Assembly: GCA_016700315.1 (NCBI GenBank)
Contig: CP065013.1
Span: forward strand, 641,449 to 705,448
Source: Candidatus Saccharimonadota bacterium
GTDB taxonomy: Bacteria > Patescibacteriota > Saccharimonadia > Saccharimonadales > SZUA-47
Length of the DNA: 64,000 nt
Direction of reading: 5' to 3'
Within the stretch, counting starts at the first letter, position 1. Every line of letters begins with the position of its first letter. The notes below the pieces were generated by a model, which ran no database searches, was not told where the DNA came from, and saw only the letters and a program-made list of their open reading frames with translations. Shown here piece after piece: positions 7,759 to 64,000 of the stretch. The position numbers and the translations under genes are program-made.

Positions 7759-8238
7759 ATGCACGTATTTTTTCATTTGATTTTTGCTTATGTGGGGCTT
7801 TGGCTTTTGACGAGAGAGTTTGGTAGAAAGTTCGAGCCGCGCAAACACTGGGGCTGGTTGGCCGTAGGCGTGGTTTTTGGGGTTTTGGCGGTACTTTCTT
7901 ACGATGTCTTTAGCGACTTGGTTGCCAATTGGATCTTACATTCTGTTGGTGGCGGCGCGGTAACGGCTCTAACTTACTTCTATTTCAAGGCTCACGTCAG
8001 GCCAAAATGGTCTTGGAGAGTGGATGCTGTCATGCTTTTTATGCTCGTATCGGCGCTCGGAGCAATCAACGAACTGGCTGAGTATGCTTACGAGTTAGCG
8101 CATCTTGGGACAATGAGCTTCGATACGCACGATACTTGGCGGGATCTAGTGGCAAATTCTGCCGGCGCACTGTTAACCTGGATTATCGTATCCTCACTTT
8201 TGAGAAAGAACTCCAACCCTGCTAGTAATAAAAGCTGA
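7759..8238 (+). CDS. hypothetical integral membrane protein (159 aa)
   Basis: About four hydrophobic helices. TATAAT at 7746-7751 lies only ~7 nt from the ATG, so the mRNA may be leaderless. Confidence 0.5.
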   Translation: MHVFFHLIFAYVGLWLLTREFGRKFEPRKHWGWLAVGVVFGVLAVLSYDVFSDLVANWILHSVGGGAVTALTYFYFKAHVRPKWSWRVDAVMLFMLVSALGAINELAEYAYELAHLGTMSFDTHDTWRDLVANSAGALLTWIIVSSLLRKNSNPASNKS

Positions 8239-10535: not shown

Positions 10536-13511
<2,976 letters not shown>

Positions 13512-37683: not shown

Positions 37684-37714
37684 GTATCACTGATTAATAT
37701 GATATTATTTGACC

Positions 37715-39112
37715 ATGAAACTTGCCTCTACCAATCCAGCGGATAGTTACAAAATTATTGGTTATGTCGATGTATCTACACCAGAGGAAATAAAACAAAA
37801 GGTAGCCAGTGCTCAGAAAGTGAAGACCATATGGAAGGAGCTAGGCGTTACTGCTCGTATCGAACTTCTGCGCCCAATCCAAGCTGAATTTCGAGATCGT
37901 GCAACTGAGATCGCCGAGCTTATTAGCCTTGAAACAGGTAAGCCTATTGTCGAAGCACTGAGTGAAGCAGAACGCTATACTAATATTGAACTTGGCTGGT
38001 TCCTAGAAAACGGTTTGAAGGCTCTTGCTGGCGAAACTGTTTTCGAAGACGATGAGTCACGCCACTATATTGTCTACGAACCGCATGGCGTTGTCGCAGC
38101 AATCGCACCGTGGAACTTTCCTTTTGGCATGGCGATATGGGGCATTTTCCCTAATTTGATTGCCGGAAATACAGTTGTCTTTAAAATATCGGAAGAATGC
38201 CCATTAGTTGGTAAACTCATTGAACAGATTATCACCAGTCACAACTTGCCTGAAGGTGTGTTCGGCGAAGTGTACGGCGACGGCAAAGTCGGAAAGTTGC
38301 TTACAGAACAGGACATCGACCTTATATGGTTCACTGGTAGCACAGCCACAGGTAAGGCGCTGTACAAAACCGCAGCTAACAAATTCATAAAAGCTGTTCT
38401 TGAAATGGGTGGCTCGAGCCCTTGTGTTGTTTTTGATGATGTGGATATAGCTGAAGCAGCACCTATTATTTTTAGTGGGCGTTTCCAGCATAATGGCCAA
38501 GTGTGTAGCGCACTAAAACGCCTCATAGTGCACGAAGATATTGCTGATAAATTGTTATCCGAGCTAAAAATGCTTCTTGACCAACAGAAAATAGGTGATC
38601 CACTTAATCAAAGCTTTAATCGTGGTAGTTTAGTTGCTGAGCGGCAGGTGACACTCTTGCAAGAGCAATATAACGACGCACTTGTTAAAGGTGCCAAAAT
38701 CGCTGCTCAAACTAAAGTACCCAAAGACCTCAAAGGCGCGTTTTTCCCGCCCACACTCCTTACTAACGTCACAAGAGATATGCGCGTCTGGAAAGAAGAA
38801 GTCTTTGGGCCAATATTTCCAATTGTTACTTTTGCAACAGAGGCAGAAAGCGTGGAATTAGCTAACGATACACTTTATGGTTTGACTGCACGCGTTATGT
38901 CAAAAGACATTGATCGGGCCAGGAGAGTTGCAGCAAAAATTGATGCTGGTACAGTAAGCCTAAACCTTGAATCACGGTTCCTACCAGCTGATCCATTCGG
39001 GGGTTATAAAAATTCTGGTATGGGACGCGAACGCGGTATTCATGGGTTACGAGAATTATGCCAAATTAAAGTTATGCAGGAAAACAAAAGTATGCAAGCC
39101 GGCGAAGGTTAA
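37715..39112 (+). CDS. NAD(P)-dependent aldehyde dehydrogenase
   Basis: FTGSTATGK, LEMGGSSP (catalytic Glu region), GQVCSALKR (catalytic Cys), EEVFGP. ATG at 37715, or TTG at 37709. Confidence 0.85.
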   Translation: MKLASTNPADSYKIIGYVDVSTPEEIKQKVASAQKVKTIWKELGVTARIELLRPIQAEFRDRATEIAELISLETGKPIVEALSEAERYTNIELGWFLENGLKALAGETVFEDDESRHYIVYEPHGVVAAIAPWNFPFGMAIWGIFPNLIAGNTVVFKISEECPLVGKLIEQIITSHNLPEGVFGEVYGDGKVGKLLTEQDIDLIWFTGSTATGKALYKTAANKFIKAVLEMGGSSPCVVFDDVDIAEAAPIIFSGRFQHNGQVCSALKRLIVHEDIADKLLSELKMLLDQQKIGDPLNQSFNRGSLVAERQVTLLQEQYNDALVKGAKIAAQTKVPKDLKGAFFPPTLLTNVTRDMRVWKEEVFGPIFPIVTFATEAESVELANDTLYGLTARVMSKDIDRARRVAAKIDAGTVSLNLESRFLPADPFGGYKNSGMGRERGIHGLRELCQIKVMQENKSMQAGEG

Positions 39113-39407: not shown

Positions 39408-40850
39408 ATGAAAAAAGCATACTACGTTACAACTTCTATACCATATGTGAATGGCGACCCTCACATTGGTTTTGGCATGGAGATTATCCAAGCTGATGTA
39501 CTGGCACGCTATGCCAGGCAGCAGGGTAATGAGGTGCTATTCTCCACCGGAACAGATGAACACGGCACAAAAGTAGCCGAAAAGGCGATCGAGGAAAACA
39601 AAGACGTTGTTGAATTTGTACAAGAAAAGTCTGACAGTTTTAGAGAGCTATGCAAAGCGCTGAACATCAGCAATGATCGCTTTATTCGTACCACTGACAA
39701 AGGTCATGAGCAGCGCTCGCAGATTATCTGGCAGAATCTAAAAAAAGGCGACATTTACAAAGGTAAGTACGTAGGTTGGTATGATGTTCGACAGGAGGAA
39801 TTTGTCACCGAGAGCCAGGCCGATCCAGAACGTATGAAGCCCGATCATCCTCAAGCCTACCGCAAACTCGAAGAAGAAAACTACTTCTTTAAGCTCAGTG
39901 CCTACACCGAAGAAGTTAAGCAAGCCATTAAAAGTGGTAAGTTTGAGATTATCCCTCAAAAACGCCGTAATGAGATTTTGGCAGTGCTAGAGAAAGGCTT
40001 AGAAGACATTAGTGTGTCTAGGCCAAAAGACAAGATAAGTTGGGGTGTGCCTGTGCCGGGTGATGACACCCAAGTAATGTACGTTTGGTTTGAGGCGCTG
40101 ATGAACTACATCACGGTACTTGGTTACCCGGAATTCGATGATTTTAAGAGGTTCTGGCCAGCCAACGTGCAAGTAATCGGCAAAGATATTATTCGTTTTC
40201 ATGCGGCGATTTGGCCTGCAATGCTACTGAGTCTTGGACTTAGTTTACCTAAAAAGCTTTATGTTCACGGATTCATAAATGTTGACGGCCAAAAAATGAG
40301 CAAAAGTATAGGCAATGTTATTGCACCAAAAGAGATCCTTGGTAAGTACGGCGTAGATACATACCGCTACTTTTTCCTACGCCACACTAGCAGTAGTGAC
40401 GACGGTGATTTTACATGGGACAAGTTGGCTAAGGCTTACAACGGCGAACTGGCTAACGAACTTGGGAATGCTGTTAGCCGTGTGGCAAGCATGATAACGC
40501 GTTACCAAGCAGGCGTGATAGGCGACGTGCCAGAAAGCAAGCACGATCGTCGTGAGTATGACGCAGCAATGGAAAAATGCCAATTCGACATTGCGCTCTC
40601 GGAGGTTTGGGAGCAAGTTCGGGGTCTAAATCAGTTTATCGACGAAACCAAGCCCTGGGTGATAGCAAAGGAGCAAGATCCGGAGCATCTACAAGATGTA
40701 CTGGCGCAGGCCGTCAGCGATCTGCTACAGGTAGCTGAGCTATTGGTACCGTTCATGCCAGACACAGCAAGCAAGATTGAGCATATTTTTGTTAAAGGCG
40801 TAGTGCGCATGCCGAAAGAGAATTTATTCCCAAGACTTGAAATCGGGTGA
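39408..40850 (+). CDS. metG: methionyl-tRNA synthetase (short form)
   Basis: PYVNGDPHIGF (HIGH), QKMSKSIGN (KMSKS), 480 aa. Confidence 0.9.
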   Translation: MKKAYYVTTSIPYVNGDPHIGFGMEIIQADVLARYARQQGNEVLFSTGTDEHGTKVAEKAIEENKDVVEFVQEKSDSFRELCKALNISNDRFIRTTDKGHEQRSQIIWQNLKKGDIYKGKYVGWYDVRQEEFVTESQADPERMKPDHPQAYRKLEEENYFFKLSAYTEEVKQAIKSGKFEIIPQKRRNEILAVLEKGLEDISVSRPKDKISWGVPVPGDDTQVMYVWFEALMNYITVLGYPEFDDFKRFWPANVQVIGKDIIRFHAAIWPAMLLSLGLSLPKKLYVHGFINVDGQKMSKSIGNVIAPKEILGKYGVDTYRYFFLRHTSSSDDGDFTWDKLAKAYNGELANELGNAVSRVASMITRYQAGVIGDVPESKHDRREYDAAMEKCQFDIALSEVWEQVRGLNQFIDETKPWVIAKEQDPEHLQDVLAQAVSDLLQVAELLVPFMPDTASKIEHIFVKGVVRMPKENLFPRLEIG

Positions 40851-41147
40851 GTTGATAGTTGATAGAAGAGACAAGAAGCAAGAGACAAGAGATAAGACGC
40901 AAGAGTCATGAGCCAAGAGCCAAGAGCCAAGAGCCAAGAGCTAGGGACTAGGGTCTAGGGTCTAGGGTCTAGCAGGTATTACCCCGTACCCTGTACTGCG
41001 TACCCCGTACCTCCTAGGGACTAGGGTCCAGGGTCTAGGGACCAGTTTATAGTTTATAGTTAATACTTGATACTATCTTTGTTTAGAATTTAGTGCTTAG
41101 GATTTAGAATTTATGCTAACTACTTGCTACTTTCTACTAACTACTTT
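40851..41147. repeat. heptamer-mosaic element A (abutting runs of 7-nt tandem repeats)
   Basis: Runs: GTTGATA x2; AGAGACA-like x7; GCCAAGA x4; CTAGGGT/CTAGGGA x5; CCGTACC-like x5; TAGGGNC x4; TTTATAG x2; TTAGAAT-like x4; CTACT-type x4. Starts 1 nt after the metG stop. Confidence 0.9.
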
Positions 41148-41170: not shown

Positions 41171-41944
41171 ATGGAATTATTTGATACGCATTGCCATGTT
41201 CATTTTGCGGATTATAAAATTGACGTCCAGCAGGTCAGTAAAAACTCGCTGGCCGCAGGCGTAAAATATCAGATGCTAGTGGGCTGTACCTTAGAGGACA
41301 GTATCGCAGCCTTTGATTATGCCAAAAAAACAGGCGATCTAAAAAGCTATATCAGTATTGGACTGCATCCACACGAAGGTTCAGTATATGCTGGCGATGA
41401 GCTGGCGTTGGCTGAATTTAGCGAGCTTGCTACGCGTCCCGAGGTGGTTGCAATTGGCGAAACGGGTTTAGATTATTACTATAACCACTCTGATCGAATA
41501 ACTCAGGAGAAACTTTTTCGTTTTCAGCTTGATCTGGCCGCAAAGCATGATTTGCCGCTTATTTTTCATGTACGCAGCGCTTTTACTGAATTTTTTGAGA
41601 TACTTGATACTTACCAAAATATCCGAGGCGTGGTACACTGTTTTAGCTCAGGTGAGGCAGAGCTTCACGAAATTCTTAAACGGGGTCTGTATGTTGGGCT
41701 AAATGGCATTATGACATTTACGCACGACCAGGGGCAGCTCGCAGCGGCCAAAAAAGTACCACTGGATCGGTTACTTCTTGAAACTGATTCGCCATACTTG
41801 ACTCCTAAGCCCTTTCGTGGTACAATCTGTGAGCCCAAGCATGTGGCAGTAACGGCCGAGTTTTTAGCTTCATTAAGAGGAGAAAAACTCGAAGATTTAG
41901 TAGCTACTACCACGGCAAATGCAATAAAATTATTCAAACTATGA
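41171..41944 (+). CDS. tatD: TatD-family metal-dependent hydrolase
   Basis: DTHCHV, GETGLDYYY, HCFSSG, ETDSPYLTP. Confidence 0.85.
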   Translation: MELFDTHCHVHFADYKIDVQQVSKNSLAAGVKYQMLVGCTLEDSIAAFDYAKKTGDLKSYISIGLHPHEGSVYAGDELALAEFSELATRPEVVAIGETGLDYYYNHSDRITQEKLFRFQLDLAAKHDLPLIFHVRSAFTEFFEILDTYQNIRGVVHCFSSGEAELHEILKRGLYVGLNGIMTFTHDQGQLAAAKKVPLDRLLLETDSPYLTPKPFRGTICEPKHVAVTAEFLASLRGEKLEDLVATTTANAIKLFKL

Positions 41945-45474: not shown

Positions 45475-46143
45475 GTGGAAAAAGTCGATTTCATACTACC
45501 CTTAAGCGTAGCGACACCAACTGATTTGGGACGGTTGTTACGTGAGGCTGAGTCTCTACACGATTTTCTAGAGCAAGCTGCAATCCGTAAGACAGGCGAA
45601 CCGATGAAGATGCCTAAGACTAGCCGAATGCTAGACGAACTAATGCAGACCAACAAAATGAACGGATTACAAAGTACAGAACGCCAAAAACTGATTAAAT
45701 GGCTAACCGCAATTAAGAAAAAAGCCCCAGTTGTACATATTAGTTTTGGCGCTGACCCTAGCCCAGTATTTCTACAAAAACTAGTAGCTTGGTTCCGCCA
45801 AAATATTCATCAATTCTTGATGATTCGGGTCGGTTTGCAGCCAAACATAGGTGCAGGTTGTATGATCAGGACCAACAATAAGGTTTTTGATATGAGCCTG
45901 AGGCAATATTTCAAGAAGCACTATCAGTACTTCGTCGATCATCTGCACGCTGTTATGGAAGATCCCAAGTCGAGCCAAGAGTCACCAGCCACCAGCCAAC
46001 AGCTAACAGCCGACGGCCAACGGCCACCAGCCGACGGCCAACAGCCACCGGCCAGCAGTCACCTGCCAACAGCCGACGGCCAACAGCAACCGGTCGATAG
46101 TCAGCAGTCGTCGGTAAACAGTAAACAAGGTACTAAAAAGTGA
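45475..46143 (+). CDS. F-type ATPase subunit delta (OSCP)-like with a heptamer-repeat-encoded C-terminal tail
   Basis: [22 protein letters not shown]...[31 protein letters not shown] fits the delta C-terminal domain pattern (..vDpsliGG..i..g....D.S....L). The last ~55 aa are 7-aa periodic. Confidence 0.55.
45968..46135 (+). repeat. in-frame heptamer array (~23 units, CCAACAG/CCGACGG type) inside the delta-like gene
   Basis: CCAAGAG TCACCAG CCACCAG CCAACAG CTAACAG CCGACGG CCAACGG CCACCAG CCGACGG CCAACAG ... TAAACAG TAAACAA. Confidence 0.9.
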
Positions 46144-47570: not shown

Positions 47571-47693
47571 GAGAATAAAGAGTATTGAGTATAGAGACAG
47601 CAAGAAGGTTGAATTTTCAATTTTCAATTCTCAATTCTCAATTTTCAACAACTTACGTCTATCTACCATCTACCATCTACCATCTGCTACTTT
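47571..47693. repeat. heptamer-mosaic element B between atpA and atpG
   Basis: TTTTCAA/TTCTCAA x5, CTACCAT x3 and related 7-mers fill the 144-nt intergenic gap. Confidence 0.85.
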
Positions 47694-52126: not shown

Positions 52127-52912
52127 ATGCGAACAATAAAAAGTTTTTGGCCAAAAAAATCAGCTATGCTCGTTGCCGTGCTCCTTATGGCTAGTTTTTC
52201 TAATGCTTACGCCCAGTATTCATCTGGTAGTTATAAGGTTGAAGAGGCCACCTTTGGAACAGGAGGTGAGTTAGATACCAGCTCGGCTAGTTACCGAGCG
52301 CAGGGTGCTGCAGGAGTTTTGGGGGTAGGCGATGCCTCTAGCGCAAGCTACGACGCCACAGCCGGGCTAATAACCCCCAACCAAGAGTACTTAGAGTTAA
52401 ATGTCGAAAATGTGACGATTAATCTGGGCGAACTTGACCCTACAACCACTAAGTTTGGGGCGGCTCAAGGAGGGGTGTGTAACTGCTCATTTTTTGTAAG
52501 AACCTATCTGTCAGATCAATATGTAGTAACAACTATGAGCGAGCCGCCAACTAGCGAAGCTGGGGTAATCCTGGCCGCCAAAACAACGCTCGGTATCCCT
52601 AGTTCAAGCGATGCAGTCGAGGAGTTCGGTATCAATCTCGTTGCCAATACAAGCCCTGGTTCGATGGGGGCAAACCCGGTTAACGTTCCTGACGGAACTT
52701 TTGCCGATGGGAAGGCAGAAACTGGCTACGATACGGTCAATCAATACAAGTACAACAAGGGCGACATTATCGCGCGTAGCGCTGCTACCTCAAGCAATCA
52801 AGCTACCGGCCAGACCAATTACACCATAAGCTACATTGTTAAAAGTAAAACTACCACTCCTGCTGGGCTTTACTCTATGTCACATGATATTGTGGCGACC
52901 GCACTTTATTAG
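52127..52912 (+). CDS. secreted beta-rich surface protein P1 (single conserved C-domain; WxL/fimbrial-like pattern)
   Basis: Signal peptide ...SNAYA/Q. Motifs LELNVENVTINLGELDP, EEFGINLVAN and C-terminal PAGLYSMSHDIVATALY parallel the C-terminal halves of P2-P4. Confidence 0.6.
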   Translation: MRTIKSFWPKKSAMLVAVLLMASFSNAYAQYSSGSYKVEEATFGTGGELDTSSASYRAQGAAGVLGVGDASSASYDATAGLITPNQEYLELNVENVTINLGELDPTTTKFGAAQGGVCNCSFFVRTYLSDQYVVTTMSEPPTSEAGVILAAKTTLGIPSSSDAVEEFGINLVANTSPGSMGANPVNVPDGTFADGKAETGYDTVNQYKYNKGDIIARSAATSSNQATGQTNYTISYIVKSKTTTPAGLYSMSHDIVATALY

Positions 52913-53288
52913 GGACGAGTTTATTTAAGAGCCAAGATTAGGTTTGAGGTTATAGGTTAGAGGTTATAGTGATTAGAGCTACGGACTAGTAGTTAGTAGT
53001 TGGTAGTTAGTAGTTGGTAGTTAGTAGTTAGTAGTTAGCAAATATTACCCCGTACCCTGTACTGCGTACCCCGTACCTCCTAGGGCCTAGGGACGAGTTT
53101 ATAGTTTATAGTTGATGGTTTATGGAAGAGCCGTGAGGCAAGAGACAAGACGCAAGAGTCATGAGCCAAGAGCTAGGGACTAGGAGCTAGGGTCTAGCGA
53201 ATACTACCCCGTACCCCGTACTGCGTACCGTCTAGGGACTAGGGTCTAGTTTCGAATTTCGTCCTCACTCCTCACGACTCACTACAAT
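52913..53288. repeat. heptamer-mosaic element C (~54 heptads)
   Basis: Runs of NNAGGTT x4; TAGTAGT/TGGTAGT x7; CCGTACC-like x4; CCTAGG x2; TTATAGT x3; AGAGNCA x6; GGGACTA-like x4; GTACCCC x3; CTAGGGN x2; ACTCCTC-like x3. Shares 43 identical nt with element A. Confidence 0.9.
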
Positions 53289-53300
53289 CCTGTGGATAAG

Positions 53301-53309
53301 TGCTATAAA
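53301..53309 (+). promoter_or_regulatory. possible extended -10 (TGCTATAAA) for P2
   Basis: The same TGCTATAAA nonamer, preceded by CTGTGGATAA, occurs upstream of P3 (55133-55141). Confidence 0.3.
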
Positions 53310-53405
53310 ATATCAAAATTAGCTTGCAATGCCCAAAACGCTCGTGCTAGACTACAGCCGTTAGTTACAAAAACTAAAAAACAAAATAAAAAAAGGAGAC
53401 CCCTT

Positions 53406-54686
53406 ATGACAAGTACGAAAAACTTCGTACGTCGCAATACTTTTGCGGCCGTTGCGGCGATGTTTGTCTGTGCAGCAATGCTACCGGCACTGCTTTCACG
53501 CCGCGCCAATGCTGCTGTTCAGATGACTGAGCGGCAAATAAAACTATCAACATCTAAAGTAAGCGCAACAGATGTTACGCACACAGTAAGCTTCAAGGTC
53601 GCTACGACTGGAGCCGTGCAAGGTATCGTTGTTGATTATTGTACTAGCCCGCTAGTAGATACATCATGTACTGCTCCGACAGGTTTGGATACCAAAGCGC
53701 CTACAACCTTGGTTCTTGCTAACCAATCAGGTATTTCAGGCTTTTCGATCGTAACAGGCAGCTCTAGCTCCAACAAGGTAGTATTAACTAATGGTTCTGG
53801 CGGATCTATTTCAGCTGGAACAACAGTCAGCTTCGATCTTGGATCTAGTGGCGGTACAGACGGAGAAACCAACCCTTCAACTAATGGTAGTTTCTATGCT
53901 CGTATTGTAACTTATGCCACTGCGGCTGGTGCAACAGGTTACGTATCTAACGCCATCAATACCGGTGGTACGGCTGTTGACGCTGGCGGTGTAGCCATGA
54001 GCACAGCTAACCAACTTACCGTTAACGCTCGCGTTCAGGAAGTCTTGGTCTTCTGTGTTGGTACTGATGACGCTAACGCAGCTAACGATTGTTCAGACAT
54101 TTCTGGTACGACCGTTGACCTTGGAGTAGTTCAAAGCGGCACGCCGAGTATTTCCCCTGTTGCAACAAGTAGCGGTGGTAACAATAAGAATGGTCTAGCC
54201 ATGATACGTACAAACGCCGTCAACGGTGTAGTAGTGGATTACTTTGCAGAAGCCGTAACTGGCGATAGTGGTTCAACCCACATGGGTGCGCTGCGTGTAT
54301 CTGGTTCAACCTGTACTGGCGACGGTACAATTGCTACTGGTAGCAAAACTGACCAATGTTTTAACAGCTCAGGAACAACTCAAGCAGTCTTTGGTACGAG
54401 TGACGAAGGTTTCGGTATGACCTCATCCAGTGTTGATACAACAAATGGTACTACTACTAACTTAGTGCGTGACACTGAGTATGATGGTGACGGCACTAAC
54501 GGTGCTGGTAATGGTTGGGCATGGGCTCAAACTACTCCAGATCGTCTAGCCAGCTCCACAGCTTCAGGTGTTAAAGTTGTAGACGACGAAATGCTGATCT
54601 TGCGCTTTGCTGCTCAGGCAGCTGTAACGACTCCAACTGGTCAATACGGCGTAACAAGCACTTACGTAGCAACCTCTAGCTTCTAA
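53406..54686 (+). CDS. secreted surface protein P2 (variable N-domain plus conserved C-domain)
   Basis: ATG at 53406, 8 nt after AGGAG. Signal peptide ...RRANA/A. N-terminal strand RQIKLSTSKVSATDVTHTVSF and Cys pairs. C-terminal GQYGVTSTYVATSSF. Confidence 0.7.
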   Translation: MTSTKNFVRRNTFAAVAAMFVCAAMLPALLSRRANAAVQMTERQIKLSTSKVSATDVTHTVSFKVATTGAVQGIVVDYCTSPLVDTSCTAPTGLDTKAPTTLVLANQSGISGFSIVTGSSSSNKVVLTNGSGGSISAGTTVSFDLGSSGGTDGETNPSTNGSFYARIVTYATAAGATGYVSNAINTGGTAVDAGGVAMSTANQLTVNARVQEVLVFCVGTDDANAANDCSDISGTTVDLGVVQSGTPSISPVATSSGGNNKNGLAMIRTNAVNGVVVDYFAEAVTGDSGSTHMGALRVSGSTCTGDGTIATGSKTDQCFNSSGTTQAVFGTSDEGFGMTSSSVDTTNGTTTNLVRDTEYDGDGTNGAGNGWAWAQTTPDRLASSTASGVKVVDDEMLILRFAAQAAVTTPTGQYGVTSTYVATSSF

Positions 54687-54703
54687 AAGCTTAACGTTCG
54701 AAC

Positions 54704-54735
54704 AAAAGCTCCGCGAATTAATGCGGAGCTTTTTA
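54704..54735 (+). terminator. rho-independent terminator after P2
   Basis: AAAAGCTCCGC GAATTAAT GCGGAGCTTTT followed by TAT. Confidence 0.7.
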
Positions 54736-54749
54736 TGTGTATGCGTTTA

Positions 54750-55098
54750 GCTAATAGGGGTATAGGACGAGTTTATAGTTTATAGTTGATAGTTGATAGA
54801 AGAGCCAAGATTAGGTTAGAGGTTATAGGAAGAGCCAAGATTAGGTTAGAGGTTTATGGAAGAGACAAGATTAGGTTAGAGGTTAGAGGTTATAGTGATT
54901 AGTAGGACTACGGACTAGTAGTTAGTAGGTAGTAGTTAGTAGGTAGCAAGTATTACGCCGTACCGCGTACCTCGTACCACGTACCGACTAGGGACTAAAG
55001 TCTAGGGAACAGGGTCTATTTTAGAATTTAGTGCTTTGGATTTAGGATTTTATACTTCATGCTTGCTACCAACTACCATCTACCAACTTACCTCATTA
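54750..55098. repeat. heptamer-mosaic element D (contains a 3 x 30-nt higher-order repeat at 54801-54890)
   Basis: GTTTATA x2; GTTGATA x2; AGAGCCAAGATTAGGTTAGAGGTT(A)TAGGA x3; GTAGTTA/GTAGGTA x4; GTACCNC x5; CTAGGGA-like x4; GGATTT-type; CTACCA x3. Confidence 0.9.
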
Positions 55099-55132
55099 CT
55101 GTGGATAAAGGGTTGCGCTTAAGCTTAAAACT

Positions 55133-55141
55133 TGCTATAAA
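55133..55141 (+). promoter_or_regulatory. possible extended -10 (TGCTATAAA) for P3
   Basis: Conserved with 53301-53309. Confidence 0.3.
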
Positions 55142-55255
55142 GATAGAGCATAACCTAAAACAAAAACATTAATTAAATCAATATTCCAACTACTACAGTG
55201 TAGCGGTCGTGCGCTAGTGAGTAGTAGCTCGGAGTAGCGTTTAAAAGGAGCGCTT

Positions 55256-56506
55256 ATGAATAAAACTAACGCCCTCAGTAAGAGGGTGCAACTGCTCGCT
55301 TTTGCGGGCCTGATGGTTGCTGCTGCAATTCTGCCGGCATTTGCAAAAATGCGCGTAGAAGCTTATGCACAGCCAAGTGAAAGGTCGATTAATATATCGA
55401 CTTCAGAAGCGGGTGCGACTGACGTGACTTATACGGTTTCGTTCAAGCCTGCGACTACAATTACAGCACAAGGTATTGTGGTAGAAATTTGCGATAGTCC
55501 TTTAGTGGGAACAGTCTGTTCTTCGGCTGGTGGTTCAAGTGGCTTCGACAGTAACGAGGCGAACTTAGCAGTGACAGCTACAGGGCTAACTTTGGATGCG
55601 GCAACAGATACAAATACGATCGTACTCACGGGTAGTGCGAGCCTCACAGCGGGCACAGCGTACACAATAACTCTCGGAAATACCGGCGGTAACGATGGCG
55701 TAACAAACCCATCTGCTGCAGGTAGCTTCTATGGAAGGATCATCACTTACACTAGCAGTGCGACTGCCGTGGCATACGATTCTTCTACAACGGGTGCAAA
55801 TAACCCTGGCGCTGCAACAGACGCTGGCGGTGTAGCCATGAGCACAGCTAACCAACTTACCGTTAACGCTCGCGTTCAGGAAGTATTGGTCTTCTGTGTT
55901 GGTACTGATGACGCAAACGCAGCTAATGACTGTTCAGATATAACTGGTAATACAGTAGATTTGGGAGTTGTTCAGGCGGGTGCTTTGAGCACTTCGCCAG
56001 TAGCTACAAGTCAGGGCGGCAACAACAAGAATGGTCTAGCCATGGTGCGTACAAACGCTGTAAATGGTGTGACTATAGACTACTTTGCTGAAGCAGTAAC
56101 CGGCGACACAGGCTCAACCCACATGGGTGCGCTCCGTGTCTCTGGAGCAACTTGTACTGGCGACGGTACCTTTGCTACAGGTAGCAAAACCGACCAATGT
56201 TTTAACAGTATGGGGCTTACCCAAACTGCGATTACTGACGAAGGCTTTGGTATGACGCTTGACCCTGTTGACACCTCTAACGGTACGACAGCCAACCTAA
56301 CTCGCGATACTCAATACGACGGTGTCGCAGGCGGATTTGCTTGGTCTGCAACCACAACCGATACTATTGCTAGCTCAACGGCATCTGGCGTAAAAGTTGT
56401 TGACGATGAGTTGATGACTTTGCGCTTTGCTGCACAAGCTGCTGTAACAACCCCAACCGGTCAATATGGTGTTACGAGCACCTATATTGCTACAGCATCT
56501 TACTAA
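55256..56506 (+). CDS. secreted surface protein P3 (paralog of P2)
   Basis: Signal peptide ...VEAYA/Q. The C-terminal ~230 aa are roughly 85-90% identical to P2 (a 65-nt identical DNA run starts at 53989/55820). The N-terminal ~170 aa are divergent. Confidence 0.75.
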   Translation: MNKTNALSKRVQLLAFAGLMVAAAILPAFAKMRVEAYAQPSERSINISTSEAGATDVTYTVSFKPATTITAQGIVVEICDSPLVGTVCSSAGGSSGFDSNEANLAVTATGLTLDAATDTNTIVLTGSASLTAGTAYTITLGNTGGNDGVTNPSAAGSFYGRIITYTSSATAVAYDSSTTGANNPGAATDAGGVAMSTANQLTVNARVQEVLVFCVGTDDANAANDCSDITGNTVDLGVVQAGALSTSPVATSQGGNNKNGLAMVRTNAVNGVTIDYFAEAVTGDTGSTHMGALRVSGATCTGDGTFATGSKTDQCFNSMGLTQTAITDEGFGMTLDPVDTSNGTTANLTRDTQYDGVAGGFAWSATTTDTIASSTASGVKVVDDELMTLRFAAQAAVTTPTGQYGVTSTYIATASY

Positions 56507-56580
56507 AAGCTAACAATTGTTTTTGGGCACGATAAAGATAAACGTTTTAGGAAAATGCATTTAATACTACAATATAAGCA

Positions 56581-57636
56581 ATGAGACATAGGTCTAGTAA
56601 TGCGGTTGTGGTATTTGGGCGGGCAGGAATCTGTTTCCTGCTCGCTCTTTTAATTGTCAATTTTGGCCCGCGCGCCGACGCTGCTGATTTTCAGAACAGG
56701 TCGATAAGGTTGTCTTCGCCATCTGCGGGAGAGGCTTCTAATCACACCTTTAGCTTTACGAACCCGACCGTTTCGGTAGTTGGATCAATCGTATTACAAT
56801 ATTGCGCCAATAGTCCGCTTTTTATTGATCCTTGCGCCGCGCCAGCAGGGCTTGATGCGACAGCAGCTAGTTTGGCCAGCCAAACCGGCAATGTCGGATT
56901 CGTAAAGGACGCCTCGAGTACAGCCAGTCGTATCGTACTTTCCAGAGCGCCGGCCGGCAGCCTGAGCATCAATAGCAGCTATACCTTAAATAATGTGATC
57001 AACCCAACCCTTGCCGACCAAACATTCTTCGGACGCATAAGCATGCACGCAAGTAGTGACGGCAGCGGGCCAGCAATCGATCAAGGTGCGGTAGCATTTT
57101 CGACCAGTGGGTCGTTTAATATAGGCGCCTACGTCCCGCCTTTTCTGATCTTTTGTGTAGGTGTTACTGTGGCACCTGATTGTTCGTCTACCACAGGTAA
57201 TTTAATAGATTTTGGCGTACTGGCACCTACTATAACGGCTTTGGCAACTACGCAGTTTGCTGGAGCAACAAACGATTTTACAGGCTACCAAGTTTTTGTA
57301 AACGGCCAAACTATGACATCAGGTAACAATGCTATTCCAGAGCTGACTATTCCAGGATCAAGCAGCCAGGGCGTTAGTCAGTTTGGGCTAAATCTGCGCT
57401 TAAACAACGCGCCAGTAGTTGGCAATAACCCATCCGGAAGCGGCACAGCAGTGGTTGATCCTAAATATAACACTTCTAATCTTTTTGCTTTTGGCGATGG
57501 CGATAAGGTCGTTAGTTCGCCCATCACAACTGATTTCAATGTCTTCACCCAAAGCTATTTAGTTAACGTCTCAGCCTTACAAAAGCCAGGCGTTTATGCG
57601 ACAACTCTTTTATATACAGCTGTTGCTAGTTTTTGA
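56581..57636 (+). CDS. secreted surface protein P4 (distant paralog of P2/P3)
   Basis: Signal peptide ...PRADA/A. RSIRLSSPSAGEASNHTFSF, YCANSPLFIDPCAAPAGL, LIFCVGVTVAPDCSSTTGNLIDFGVL, C-terminal PGVYATTLLYTAVASF. Confidence 0.7.
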   Translation: MRHRSSNAVVVFGRAGICFLLALLIVNFGPRADAADFQNRSIRLSSPSAGEASNHTFSFTNPTVSVVGSIVLQYCANSPLFIDPCAAPAGLDATAASLASQTGNVGFVKDASSTASRIVLSRAPAGSLSINSSYTLNNVINPTLADQTFFGRISMHASSDGSGPAIDQGAVAFSTSGSFNIGAYVPPFLIFCVGVTVAPDCSSTTGNLIDFGVLAPTITALATTQFAGATNDFTGYQVFVNGQTMTSGNNAIPELTIPGSSSQGVSQFGLNLRLNNAPVVGNNPSGSGTAVVDPKYNTSNLFAFGDGDKVVSSPITTDFNVFTQSYLVNVSALQKPGVYATTLLYTAVASF

Positions 57637-57660
57637 GTAGTAAGTCCGCCTAAGTCGGAC

Positions 57661-57922
57661 TAGGAACGAGGGGGGAGTTAGCGGTTAGTAGCAAGTAGTT
57701 AGTAGTAAGTAGCAAGCGTTAAATTCTAAATTCTAAAATAGACCCTGGACCCTGGACCCTAGTCCCTGGTCCCTAGCTCTTGGCTCTACTTGAACAGTAC
57801 GCAGTAAGAGGTACGCGGTACGGGGTAATATTTGCTAACTACCAACTACCAACTACCAACTACCAACTACTAACTACTGGTCCATTGCCCTAATCACTCT
57901 AACCTATAACCTCTAACCTAAT
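57661..57922. repeat. heptamer-mosaic element E (reverse-complement orientation relative to A, C and D)
   Basis: Contains GGTACGGGGTAATATTTGCTAACTACC, the reverse complement of the GGTAGTTAGCAAATATTACCCCGTACC module in C, plus GACCCTG/GTCCCTA, AACTACC x5 and TAACCT runs. Confidence 0.9.
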
Positions 57923-58017
57923 AGCAAGAAACAGTTGTGAATTTTATAATGCTGCTTGCGCTTTTTCTAACTCTCTATTATGCTAGTGGTAAGTATCATT
58001 TTAAAGTGAGGGAAAGA

Positions 58018-62416: not shown

Positions 62417-64000
62417 ATGACAGCGCAGGAAATTAGAAACAAGTATTTAGATTTTTTTTCTAAACGTGGACATGCCCAAATTCCGCGTGCTTTGTTGGTA
62501 CCATATAACGACCCAACTACTCTTTTTACTGGCTCCGGCATGCAGCCGCTAATTCAGTATTTGCTAGGCGAGCCTCATCCAGAAGGCACCAAATTAGTCG
62601 ATAGCCAGACTTGTCTTAGGGCTCAGGACATAGATGAGGTTGGTGACAACCGCCACACAACTTTCTTTGAAATGCTTGGTAATTGGAGTTTGGGCGACTA
62701 TTTTAAGGCCGAGCAGTTGCCTTGGTTTTTTGAATTTTTGACAGATGTGGTTGGCTTGGATCCGAACAAACTCTATGTCACGACTTTTATTGGTGATAAG
62801 GATAACGGGATCCCACGAGACACAGAAAGTGCTGAACTTTGGGCTGGATTGTTCAAGCAAAAAGGTATCGAGGCTAAAGCCGTCGAAATAGGCTCTGAAG
62901 CAGATGGCTACGCCAAAGGTATGCAAGGTGGCCGTATTTTTTATTATGACGCTAGCAAAAACTGGTGGTGCAGAGCTGGCAAAATTGGCGATATGCCGGC
63001 AGGTGAGCCCGGGGGGCCAGACAGCGAAGTTTTCTACGAATTTGACTTTGTAGAACATGATCCAAAATGGGGCCAAAACTGTCACCCAAACTGTGACTGT
63101 GGTCGCTACATGGAAATTGGTAACAGTGTTTTCATGGAGTATTTACGCACAGAGAAAGGCTTTGAAAAGCTACCGAAGCAAAATGTTGACTTCGGTGCTG
63201 GCCTGGAGCGTATCGCCGCTGCTGCGATAAACAGTCCAGACATGTTCAAGATCAGCGTCATCTGGCCAATAGTCGAGAAACTCGAAGCTATCAGCGGTGT
63301 GAAATATGATTTTACTCCCGGTGATTTGGGATACGAGAAGATGCCGGATTGCTGGCTAGATACTATGAAGTCGATGCGTGTGATCGCTGATCATTTGCGG
63401 GCAGCAACTTTCTTGGCTGTCGATGGAGTAAGCCCGAGCAACAAAGAGCAGGGTTATGTGATGCGCCGACTCTTGCGCCGTGCTATTCGCTTTGCATTTG
63501 ATCTGGGTATTGAACAGAACTTCTTAGAACAGATCGTGCCAGTTATTGCCGATATTTACCATGCAGATTTCCCGGAAGTTGCCGCCAATCGCCAGCAAGT
63601 TATCGAAACGCTAGTCAAGGAAGAAAAAGTCTTCCGCCAGACTCTAAGAAAAGGCCTGAAAGAGTTTGAGAAAATATTCCAATCGAGTCAAGAGTCAGGA
63701 GTCATGAGTCAAGGAGAAGCTCTGTTTAGGCTTTATGACACCTATGGTTTTCCTATTGAATTAAGCGTTGAGGAAGCTTCTAAACGAGGCATTGAATTAG
63801 AATCAGATTGGCGTGAGCAATTTGACGGCAAAATGGCTGAGCAAAAAGCGCGTAGTCAGACAGCGAGCAAGGGAGTGTTCAAAGGTGGGCTTGGTGGCCA
63901 AACCATGCAGCACAAGAAATACCACACGGCAACTCATCTAATGTATCAAGCGCTGCGCGATGTGCTTGGCGACCATGTTATTCAGCGCGGCAGTAACATT
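62417..64000 (+). CDS. alaS: alanyl-tRNA synthetase, 3' end outside window
   Basis: Hand-translated: MTAQEIRNKYLDFFSKRGHAQIPRALLVPYNDPTTLFTGSGMQ..., FEMLGNWSLGDYFK, GGPDSEVFYEF, GNSVFMEY. The frame is open to nt 64000 and is absent from the track because no stop lies in the window. Confidence 0.9.
   Translation, partial: MTAQEIRNKYLDFFSKRGHAQIPRALLVPYNDPTTLFTGSGMQPLIQYLLGEPHPEGTKLVDSQTCLRAQDIDEVGDNRHTTFFEMLGNWSLGDYFKAEQLPWFFEFLTDVVGLDPNKLYVTTFIGDKDNGIPRDTESAELWAGLFKQKGIEAKAVEIGSEADGYAKGMQGGRIFYYDASKNWWCRAGKIGDMPAGEPGGPDSEVFYEFDFVEHDPKWGQNCHPNCDCGRYMEIGNSVFMEYLRTEKGFEKLPKQNVDFGAGLERIAAAAINSPDMFKISVIWPIVEKLEAISGVKYDFTPGDLGYEKMPDCWLDTMKSMRVIADHLRAATFLAVDGVSPSNKEQGYVMRRLLRRAIRFAFDLGIEQNFLEQIVPVIADIYHADFPEVAANRQQVIETLVKEEKVFRQTLRKGLKEFEKIFQSSQESGVMSQGEALFRLYDTYGFPIELSVEEASKRGIELESDWREQFDGKMAEQKARSQTASKGVFKGGLGGQTMQHKKYHTATHLMYQALRDVLGDHVIQRGSNI

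Follow-up and report, generated by a model that had tools for sequence, protein, structure and literature searches.

How does a spacer composed almost entirely of tandemly repeated heptanucleotides come to separate two genes of an operon in a bacterium with a genome of about 1 Mb? The question is raised by a stretch of 64,000 nt from a Candidatus Saccharimonadota bacterium (assembly GCA_016700315.1, contig CP065013.1, positions 641,449–705,448 of the forward strand), referred to here as the window, in which 320 nt lie between metG, coding for a class I methionyl-tRNA synthetase (MetRS; 39408–40850), and a TatD-family gene (41171–41944), both annotations being confirmed by Pfam. QQS64622.1, encoded by a Candidatus Saccharibacteria metagenome-assembled genome (MAG) with a contig of 988,272 bp, has exactly the sequence of the MetRS of the window. 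We think it rather probable that the repeats of this spacer, termed element A, and their kin elsewhere in the window are heptanucleotide microsatellite assemblages resembling the short tandemly repeated repetitive (STRR) sequences, grown by slippage, spread by recombination or template switching, and tolerated as a largely non-adaptive filler.

Tandem Repeats Finder (TRF) resolved positions 40850–41146 into nine abutting arrays of period 7, in agreement with a previous reading of the letters alone (the sequence-only reading), which had described the spacer as a patchwork of heptamer runs. The units were AGTTGAT (2.3 copies), AAGAGCC-type (10.9), CTAGGGT (4.6), TACCCCG (4.6), CTAGGGA (4.1), AGTTTAT (3.1), TTTAGAA (4.6), and ACTACTT (4.0); the range of 2–7 repeats per unit given at first was too narrow, since the AAGAGCC-type run reaches about 11. 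The element and its parts are the following:

40851–41147, forward strand: element A, nine heptamer arrays forming a mosaic (from TRF, the sequence, and the Pfam-annotated neighbours)
40866–40941, forward strand: AAGAGNC-type sub-array, with degenerate 5' units and four perfect AGCCAAG units at its 3' end
40941–40972, forward strand: CTAGGGT sub-array of 4.6 units, with a canonical G-quadruplex motif (G3N4 x4) at 40944–40967
40970–40990, forward strand: non-periodic core junction TAGCAGGTATTACCCCGTACC, present once per super-unit and a marker of homology between copies
40980–41011, forward strand: C-rich TACCCCG-type sub-array containing GTAC, with its variant units in exactly the same order as in element B (below)
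41014–41045, forward strand: second CTAGGGN sub-array, of four units, with a G-quadruplex motif at 41017–41040
41044–41147, forward strand: AT-rich tail of AGTTTAT (three units), TTTAGAA (4.6), and CTAACTA/ACTACTT (four), as found by TRF

The stop codon of metG sits inside the first, degenerate unit of the element (GTGAGTT), and the right end lies about 24 nt 5' of the tatD ATG, sparing an AGGAGG Shine-Dalgarno sequence. In the tail there are two weak matches to a sigma-70-like consensus (41060–41089 and 41082–41110).

In a sliding lag-k identity scan of the 64-kb window, 1386 bp were flagged at period 7, against 0 bp at each of the periods 4–6 and 8–11; being positive at k = 7 alone, the periodic signal is specific to heptamers. 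All the period-7 regions and all the perfect heptamer dimers were located at or beyond 40.8 kb, so that the first 40 kb contain none. Weak runs of period 7 in mnmA (61719 and 62197) were not counted as arrays, because no insertion appears there on alignment to solved MnmA structures.

Element A had been proposed to belong to a dispersed family of intergenic elements, and this view was upheld: the core TAGCRRRTAYTACSCCGTACC occurs five times in the window, once per super-unit, compared with no occurrence in shuffled sequence, and collinear BLAST blocks connect the copies, one of which is inverted. On the evidence of their sequences, A and the three elements listed here were shown to be one mosaic family, homologous by descent:

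52913–53288, forward strand: element B, two super-units, the first with its core at 53036 and the second at 53195
54750–55098, forward strand: element C (TRF), with three alleles among strains
57660–57930, reverse strand: element D, with the core at 57817–57837 and a G-quadruplex motif at 57743–57773, both on the reverse strand

The two cores of B mark it as a tandem dimer of super-units. The identity of 43 nt between 40977–41019 and 53043–53085 reported earlier proved exact, as did a second sequence said to be common to A and B, the 26-mer AAGACGCAAGAGTCATGAGCCAAGAG at 40894 and 53147. Another dimer, L013b, was found at 12522–12935 of the contig L013 (ENA ERZ27309396 k141_59523) from another assembly of the same species, between genes for a class I tRNA synthetase and a DUF3048 protein, where the contig matches nothing in the window; the family is therefore more than one local duplication, as the first description had supposed. 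Of the five copies within 17 kb that it counted, four belong to the family (A, B, C, and D) and the fifth, at 47612–47685, is a separate array.

From left to right, the usual order of modules is purine-rich AGTTKAT, AAGAGNC, TAGGGNC or TAGGTTA plus TAGTAGT, the core, TACCCCG-type units, CTAGGGN, and an AT-rich tail (AGTTTAT or TTTAGAA, then CTACYAA), with two to five TAGGG units per run. The copies are nevertheless related in patches. By collinear BLAST blocks, A matches the second half of B together with the tail of C, while the first half of B matches C and D, and the AT-rich tail of A is homologous to those of C, D, and L013b. Each of A, B, C, D, and L013b has its left end in a different module, and a run of five or six C residues follows the right end of D, of L013b, and of the copy at L013 7951–8215 (L013a). 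The sharing of modules with B and C claimed for A consequently holds for collinear blocks and not as a conserved order, since the elements are mosaics.

Comparison with relatives indicated that A is a recent gain. The identity of TatD homologues falls from 98% directly to 73%, and in relatives with 73%, 69%, 67%, and 63% TatD identity the metG-tatD junction measures 10 nt, an overlap, an overlap, and 27 nt, respectively, against 320 nt here. Such junctions of 0–27 nt in four related lineages mean that A was gained in an operon junction that was ancestrally tight. The C-terminus of MetRS, whose stop lies in the first degenerate heptamer, is four residues shorter than that of the nearest relative and six shorter than those of two others. 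Similarly, D is absent at the orthologous spacer of a sister species (89% FtsA identity), in which the adjacent promoter-like region is conserved. No arrays were present in 20 kb sampled from relatives at 63% identity. Among the sequences compared, no species but this one had the core-bearing mosaic, whereas heptamer arrays occur in several members of the clade and have a fast turnover. The junction pattern had one match among GTDB representative genomes, a Gemmatimonadales MAG with CTAGGG arrays of its own, and the core pattern had four in JGI metagenome contigs, all in non-periodic sequence and taken as chance.

Dispersed copies in both orientations around a common core, insertion into an ancestral junction of 0–27 nt, an empty site for D in the sister species, dimers (B and L013b), and the C5-6 run after the right end of D, L013a, and L013b would all suit a non-autonomous mobile element, such as a miniature inverted-repeat transposable element (MITE) or a BOX-like or bacterial interspersed mosaic element (BIME)-like sequence, moved by a trans-acting enzyme and carrying the heptamer arrays as variable internal modules. 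The BOX elements of Streptococcus pneumoniae and the mosaics of BIME and repetitive extragenic palindromic (REP) sequences of Escherichia coli consist of palindromic or structured modules. The family described here is like them in being dispersed intergenic mosaics of few modules, with variable internal tandem number and in both orientations, and like MITE- or BOX-type mobile elements in its presence or absence at orthologous sites (A in four lineages, D in the sister). It is unlike BOX and BIME in its direct heptamer arrays, positive fold z-scores, and lack of inverted termini. This explanation appears unlikely to us, because A and B contain no inverted repeats, terminal or otherwise, the left end is different in every copy, and no target-site duplication was recognisable at the junctions of A or D when compared with relatives. 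Moreover, stable secondary structure is absent (fold z +1.38 and +1.52 for the two strands of A), the copies are related patchwise and not as whole elements, and no match was found in viral contigs to two core or junction patterns, nor in plasmids to element A. The inverted arms present in C and D consist only of TAGTAGT and CTACCAA modules, each the reverse complement of the other.

The behaviour of the arrays within the species was followed in independent assemblies that are 98–99% identical, over alignments of 11–19 kb. A comparison of unit copy number between strains, suggested together with the first description of the repeats, did reveal variation, with indels of 7, 14, 21, 28, and 42 nt. 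Of 30 indels, 27 were in or beside arrays and two more inside C; 10 of the 30 were multiples of 7 (7, 14, 21, or 28 nt), and the density of mismatches was four to seven times higher inside arrays. The tracts that vary are the perfect ones, namely AGCCAAG, TAGTAGT, and CTACCAA. Thus the variable portion of 40866–40941 is its perfect AGCCAAG units: a short allele of A, carried by L012, L013, and L014, has two of them against four and is also missing the sequence that separates one TAGGG run from the other, the GTACC module with it. Alleles of B have a TAGTAGT tract shorter by 14 or 21 nt, a CTACCAA tract is longer by 28 nt in the strain comparison, and in L031 about 100 nt of B are swapped for C-like sequence.

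Because repeats are prone to misassembly, the same data bear on whether the elements are artefacts of assembly or sequencing of a repeat-rich region. Short-read contigs do break inside the arrays: nearly all the Logan short-read contigs with tatD (L003–L011) start 48–88 nt upstream of its ATG, and six contigs with metG (L015 and L017–L021) stop 45–103 nt past its stop codon, so that the mosaics systematically break short-read assemblies of this lineage. In addition, the L012 scaffold is interrupted by an N gap whose flanks are duplicated, and L013 links metG to a different gene via the element. Element A, however, is the same in the NCBI-derived window and in two independent ENA assemblies, L002 (by alignment) and L016 (read unit by unit), the short allele recurs in three assemblies, and of the three C alleles two were recovered from two assemblies each. 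Given the match of the two ENA assemblies to the window, the sequence of A is real, and an artefact has a negligible probability.

In L013, metG is followed by a short-allele A that diverges at TTTAGAATTTAG and then by a PEGA-domain gene in place of tatD (7951–8215); this junction reflects either a rearrangement mediated by the element or a chimeric assembly. Upstream of metG, gene content is also variable among strains: the segment 37538–39318, with an aldehyde dehydrogenase gene (37709–39112; Pfam match on the L002 gene), is missing from L012, L013, and L015, which carry other genes there.

Element C is flanked on the left by a terminator-like hairpin with a T-run belonging to the upstream gene (about 54701–54732) and on the right by a promoter-like TTGCGC-N17-TATAAA, both recognised by eye and unlisted in the consensus scan. 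Both C and D are followed, on the downstream side, by a promoter-like region with a −35-like TTGCGC. The first unit of B overlaps the TAG stop codon of the upstream open reading frame (ORF), and its end precedes the TGTGGATAA motif and the extended −10-like sequence TGCTATAAA upstream of a secreted-protein paralog. Element A and an array in the atp genes (47612–47685) are inside operons and end about 24 nt before start codons, with the Shine-Dalgarno sequence intact. Being bounded by stop codons or terminators on one side and by promoters or ribosome-binding sites on the other, the arrays fill space that is free of signals.

Elements B, C, and D flank paralogous genes encoding signal-peptide proteins. 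These genes are arranged in tandem at 52127–57636, with identities of 62%, about 33%, and about 30%; of the four translations, three share a signal-peptide-like N-terminus and a C-terminal motif (…TTPxGxY…A(S/L)(Y/F)-stop), and Pfam gave no match for any. A perfect TGTGGATAA, a DnaA-box sequence, stands before two of these genes (53291 and 55100), adjoining the TGCTATAAA extended −10-like motif.

Only three canonical G-quadruplex motifs occur in the 64 kb, the two of A, on the forward (sense) strand, and the one of D. With one G3 tract in each unit, TAGGGNC modules of four or more units give the G3N1-7 x4 motif, the other modules of the mosaic being excluded. These motifs, the hypervariability of the arrays between strains, and the flanking of paralogs with N-terminal signal peptides by B, C, and D are what would be expected if array length or a G-quadruplex tuned transcription, mRNA stability, or translation, so that the elements were functional cis-regulators acting as a rheostat or contingency locus. 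In Haemophilus influenzae, expression of hmw1A and hmw2A is graded by one type of 7-nt unit located between promoter and start codon. The resemblance consists in a heptanucleotide repeat upstream of surface-protein genes, with a unit number varying by strain; the difference is that multi-unit mosaics are found here upstream of the putative promoters and also in housekeeping operons. The location of A and the atp array within operons suggests that they are transcribed or supply a promoter, and the weak promoter-like matches at 41060–41110 may be mentioned in this regard.

Further support for regulation comes from the recurrence of four-unit TAGGGNC runs. Rehm et al. (2015; PMC4692102) described G-quadruplex-forming heptamers, GGGNATC and GGGGAYT, in Xanthomonas and Nostoc, with a preference for four units, and an element of four GGGACCG units is present in 49 copies in Geobacter metallireducens (PMC2700814). 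A single G3 tract in each unit, a frequent number of four units, a location between co-oriented genes, and a variable unit number are common to these repeats and the TAGGGNC modules. The modules differ in their unit sequence, only some of those in the mosaic are G-rich, and the quadruplex is predicted from the motif; no tandem GGGAATC, GGGGACT, or GGGGATT, nor the GGGACCG unit, was found in the window. Regulation seems to us a doubtful explanation on balance. With the promoter-like region downstream of the array in C and D, unit changes would leave both the −35/−10 spacing and the 5' untranslated region unaffected; family members are also found in housekeeping operons, and the TAGGG units per run vary from two to five. 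The absence of the arrays from the orthologous junctions examined argues against a conserved function.

An additional explanation concerns protein binding. The omega repressor binds contiguous heptads of plasmid pSM19035, and contiguous 7-bp units correspond to the binding geometry of such ribbon-helix-helix proteins. By analogy, the contiguous heptamers could be arrays of sites for proteins reading 7-bp steps, involved in nucleoid organisation or partition, and the occurrence of the copies within 17 kb is compatible with this. Nevertheless, nine or more different unit sequences occur in each element, strains differ freely in the number of units and in their modules, the elements are absent in related species, and no candidate protein was identified, so that we consider this explanation very improbable.

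Three other interpretations were rejected. Neither strand of A can be regarded as a structured RNA or hairpin element, as both fold worse than shuffles, by the z-scores given above; no Rfam family was found at E ≤ 1 over 40–58.5 kb. The CTAG and GTAC tetranucleotides in the units are not explained as restriction sites, their observed/expected ratios outside the arrays being about 1. Finally, a replication origin at the TGTGGATAA boxes of 53291 and 55100 was discarded, since DnaA-box counts are at chance (13 against 13.8 expected); GC skew never switches sign in a sustained way across the window, and the two boxes are in paralogous upstream regions of two paralogous genes.

Heptamer runs are not limited to the core-bearing family. 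Two other arrays are present near the atp genes:

45973–46093, forward strand: AGCCAAC-type array of about 16–17 units (TRF), inside ORF 45475–46143 and just upstream of atpA
47612–47685, forward strand: arrays AATTTTC (5.3 units) and ATCTACC (3.6 units) in the atpA-atpG spacer (TRF), outside the core-bearing family

The second lacks the core and overlaps the A–D family only in its CTACCAT-type unit. The first is translated as the low-complexity C-terminal tail of ORF 45475–46143, the product of which has 222, 215, or 208 amino acids depending on the strain; the array differs by 21 or 42 nt only. The reading frame is thereby kept, as expected for slippage under a frame filter.

Several related sequences were noted along with these arrays. 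In alaS, a run of four GAGTCAA units (63685–63716) encodes QSSQESGVMSQGE, and the corresponding segment of the sister species is six residues shorter, apparently representing an in-frame expansion of a heptamer run in an essential gene. The sister species itself (L045, Logan SRR26912394; 5002–5041 and 17232–17279) has four to five CTGTAAA units in short spacers just upstream of the start codons of alaS and obg. In the relative with 67% TatD identity (L028, NCBI GCA_030154765.1; 9410–9526), the atpA-atpG spacer contains three ATCAGCC and four GAAAGCC units, unrelated to the arrays of the window at that place, and a contig from another relative (L039) stops exactly at the 3' end of atpA. The Gemmatimonadales MAG, of high GC and from an unrelated phylum (L001, DASTSO010000073.1; 353–481), has four CTAGGGA units and, 50 nt away, 7.7 CCCTAGC units in inverted orientation; although the heptamer is the same as in the TAGGGNC modules, these arrays apparently arose independently of them.

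How, then, would such mosaics be built? In the explanation that we prefer, slippage followed by the copying of blocks, the process would start with perfect tracts gaining and losing whole units, which is what the strains display and what slipped-strand mispairing predicts, and within coding sequences only changes of three or six units survive. Mutation of a unit and its re-expansion could then give rise to adjoining related sub-arrays, for example AGCCAAG to AGCTAGG to GACTAGG to GTCTAGG. Blocks of several sub-arrays with the core TAGCRRRTAYTACSCCGTACC would next be copied to other spacers, in either orientation and also in tandem. The copying itself is evident from the homologous blocks, and its mechanism may be ectopic recombination, template switching, or gene conversion, for which the many heptamer microhomologies would serve as primers, with no need of a transposase. 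Recombination is preferred over transposition because the left ends differ, A and B have no inverted repeats, and the patch in the L031 allele of B is C-like. The outcome would be a mosaic family evolving in concert. Selection would probably trim only the edges, so that arrays start at a stop codon or after a terminator and stop before a promoter or about 25 nt before a start codon. As side effects, this would have produced the sole G-quadruplex motifs of the window and the chief source of structural variation among strains.

Several points weigh against this explanation. A streamlined genome of about 1 Mb is expected to purge 300–400 bp of useless DNA, especially in the metG-tatD and atp operons, and persistence in every sampled strain could reflect a function. 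The three copies flanking genes for signal-peptide proteins fit a contingency-locus role. The mechanism of copying is inferred, and a trans-acting enzyme may be responsible for it. Some alleles may be short-read misassemblies, yet the main ones are each present in at least two independent assemblies. Moreover, the known copies are clustered, leaving the first 40 kb of the window free, and the 7-nt length of the units has no account in the model.

Among known systems, the STRR sequences had been named as the closest. These heptanucleotide repeats of heterocystous cyanobacteria, reportedly described by Mazel and colleagues in 1990, are said to have the units CCCCAGT (STRR1), TTGGTCA (STRR2), and CAACAGT (STRR3). 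The resemblance stands in kind, as both are tandem 7-nt units, mostly intergenic and dispersed on both strands, with a function established for neither. It does not extend to unit sequences or host: no tandem STRR1, STRR2, or STRR3 unit was found in the window in any rotation on either strand, the host is a member of the Saccharibacteria in the Candidate Phyla Radiation (CPR) and no cyanobacterium, and many units are concatenated here around a conserved non-periodic core.

According to the summary in PMC4679880, heptanucleotides proved the most frequent of the long simple sequence repeats (SSRs) of prokaryotes in the work of Mrazek and colleagues, who suggested a polymerase-related cause. As in the class of long SSRs with 5–11-nt units (Mrazek et al. 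2007, as summarised there), the runs in the window exceed chance and show slippage-type unit polymorphism. TAACTGA repeats and mixed heptamer assemblages have been described in Beggiatoaceae, Microcystis, Cyanothece, Gramella, Aequorivita, and Elizabethkingia (MacGregor 2015; PMC4679880); the mixed assemblages of Microcystis, Gramella, Aequorivita, and Elizabethkingia, with indels in steps of 7 nt, absence in close relatives, and contigs ending in repeats, match the present observations. The window shares with those assemblages the several heptamers per spacer, strain indels in 7-nt steps, short repeat-free spacers in relatives, near-identical assemblages at more than one locus, and contigs that stop inside repeats. 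It differs from the TAACTGA family in that no tandem TAACTGA unit was found in the window and in that the arrays stop about 24 nt before start codons instead of abutting them. The CTGTAAA arrays of the sister species, within a few nucleotides of start codons, are like the TAACTGA repeats of Beggiatoaceae in position and not in sequence.

Mixed heptamer assemblages with the same behaviour have thus already been described, and the present one is not a new type of system. What is notable is the CPR host of about 1 Mb, the insertion in housekeeping operons, and the ordered super-unit of several arrays with a conserved core. A full-text literature search found no paper combining 'Saccharibacteria' and 'simple sequence repeats'.

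A more far-reaching idea, which we hold to be improbable, is that the super-units form a transposase-independent, self-copying satellite of one Saccharibacteria lineage, carried into new spacers, including tight operon junctions, by microhomology-driven template switching. If this were true, the copies would be recombination hotspots that rearrange the chromosome (compare the metG junction of L013), the satellite would seed in-frame low-complexity insertions in essential proteins, and heptamer arrays would be a principal driver of structural change in a CPR genome that is minimal in other respects.

With these elements, the CPR joins cyanobacteria, Beggiatoaceae, some Bacteroidetes, Xanthomonas, and Geobacter among the groups in which heptanucleotide assemblages are described. 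Long-unit SSRs have been reported to belong to large genomes (PMC4692102), and a host genome of about 1 Mb runs counter to that trend. The arrays hold nearly all the indel variation between strains in the region, account for its fragmented short-read assemblies, and may serve as strain markers of the variable-number tandem repeat (VNTR) type. With related alleles in the species and empty sites in its sister, they offer a natural system in which to study the preference of bacterial slippage for units of 7 nt and the spreading of arrays of this kind.

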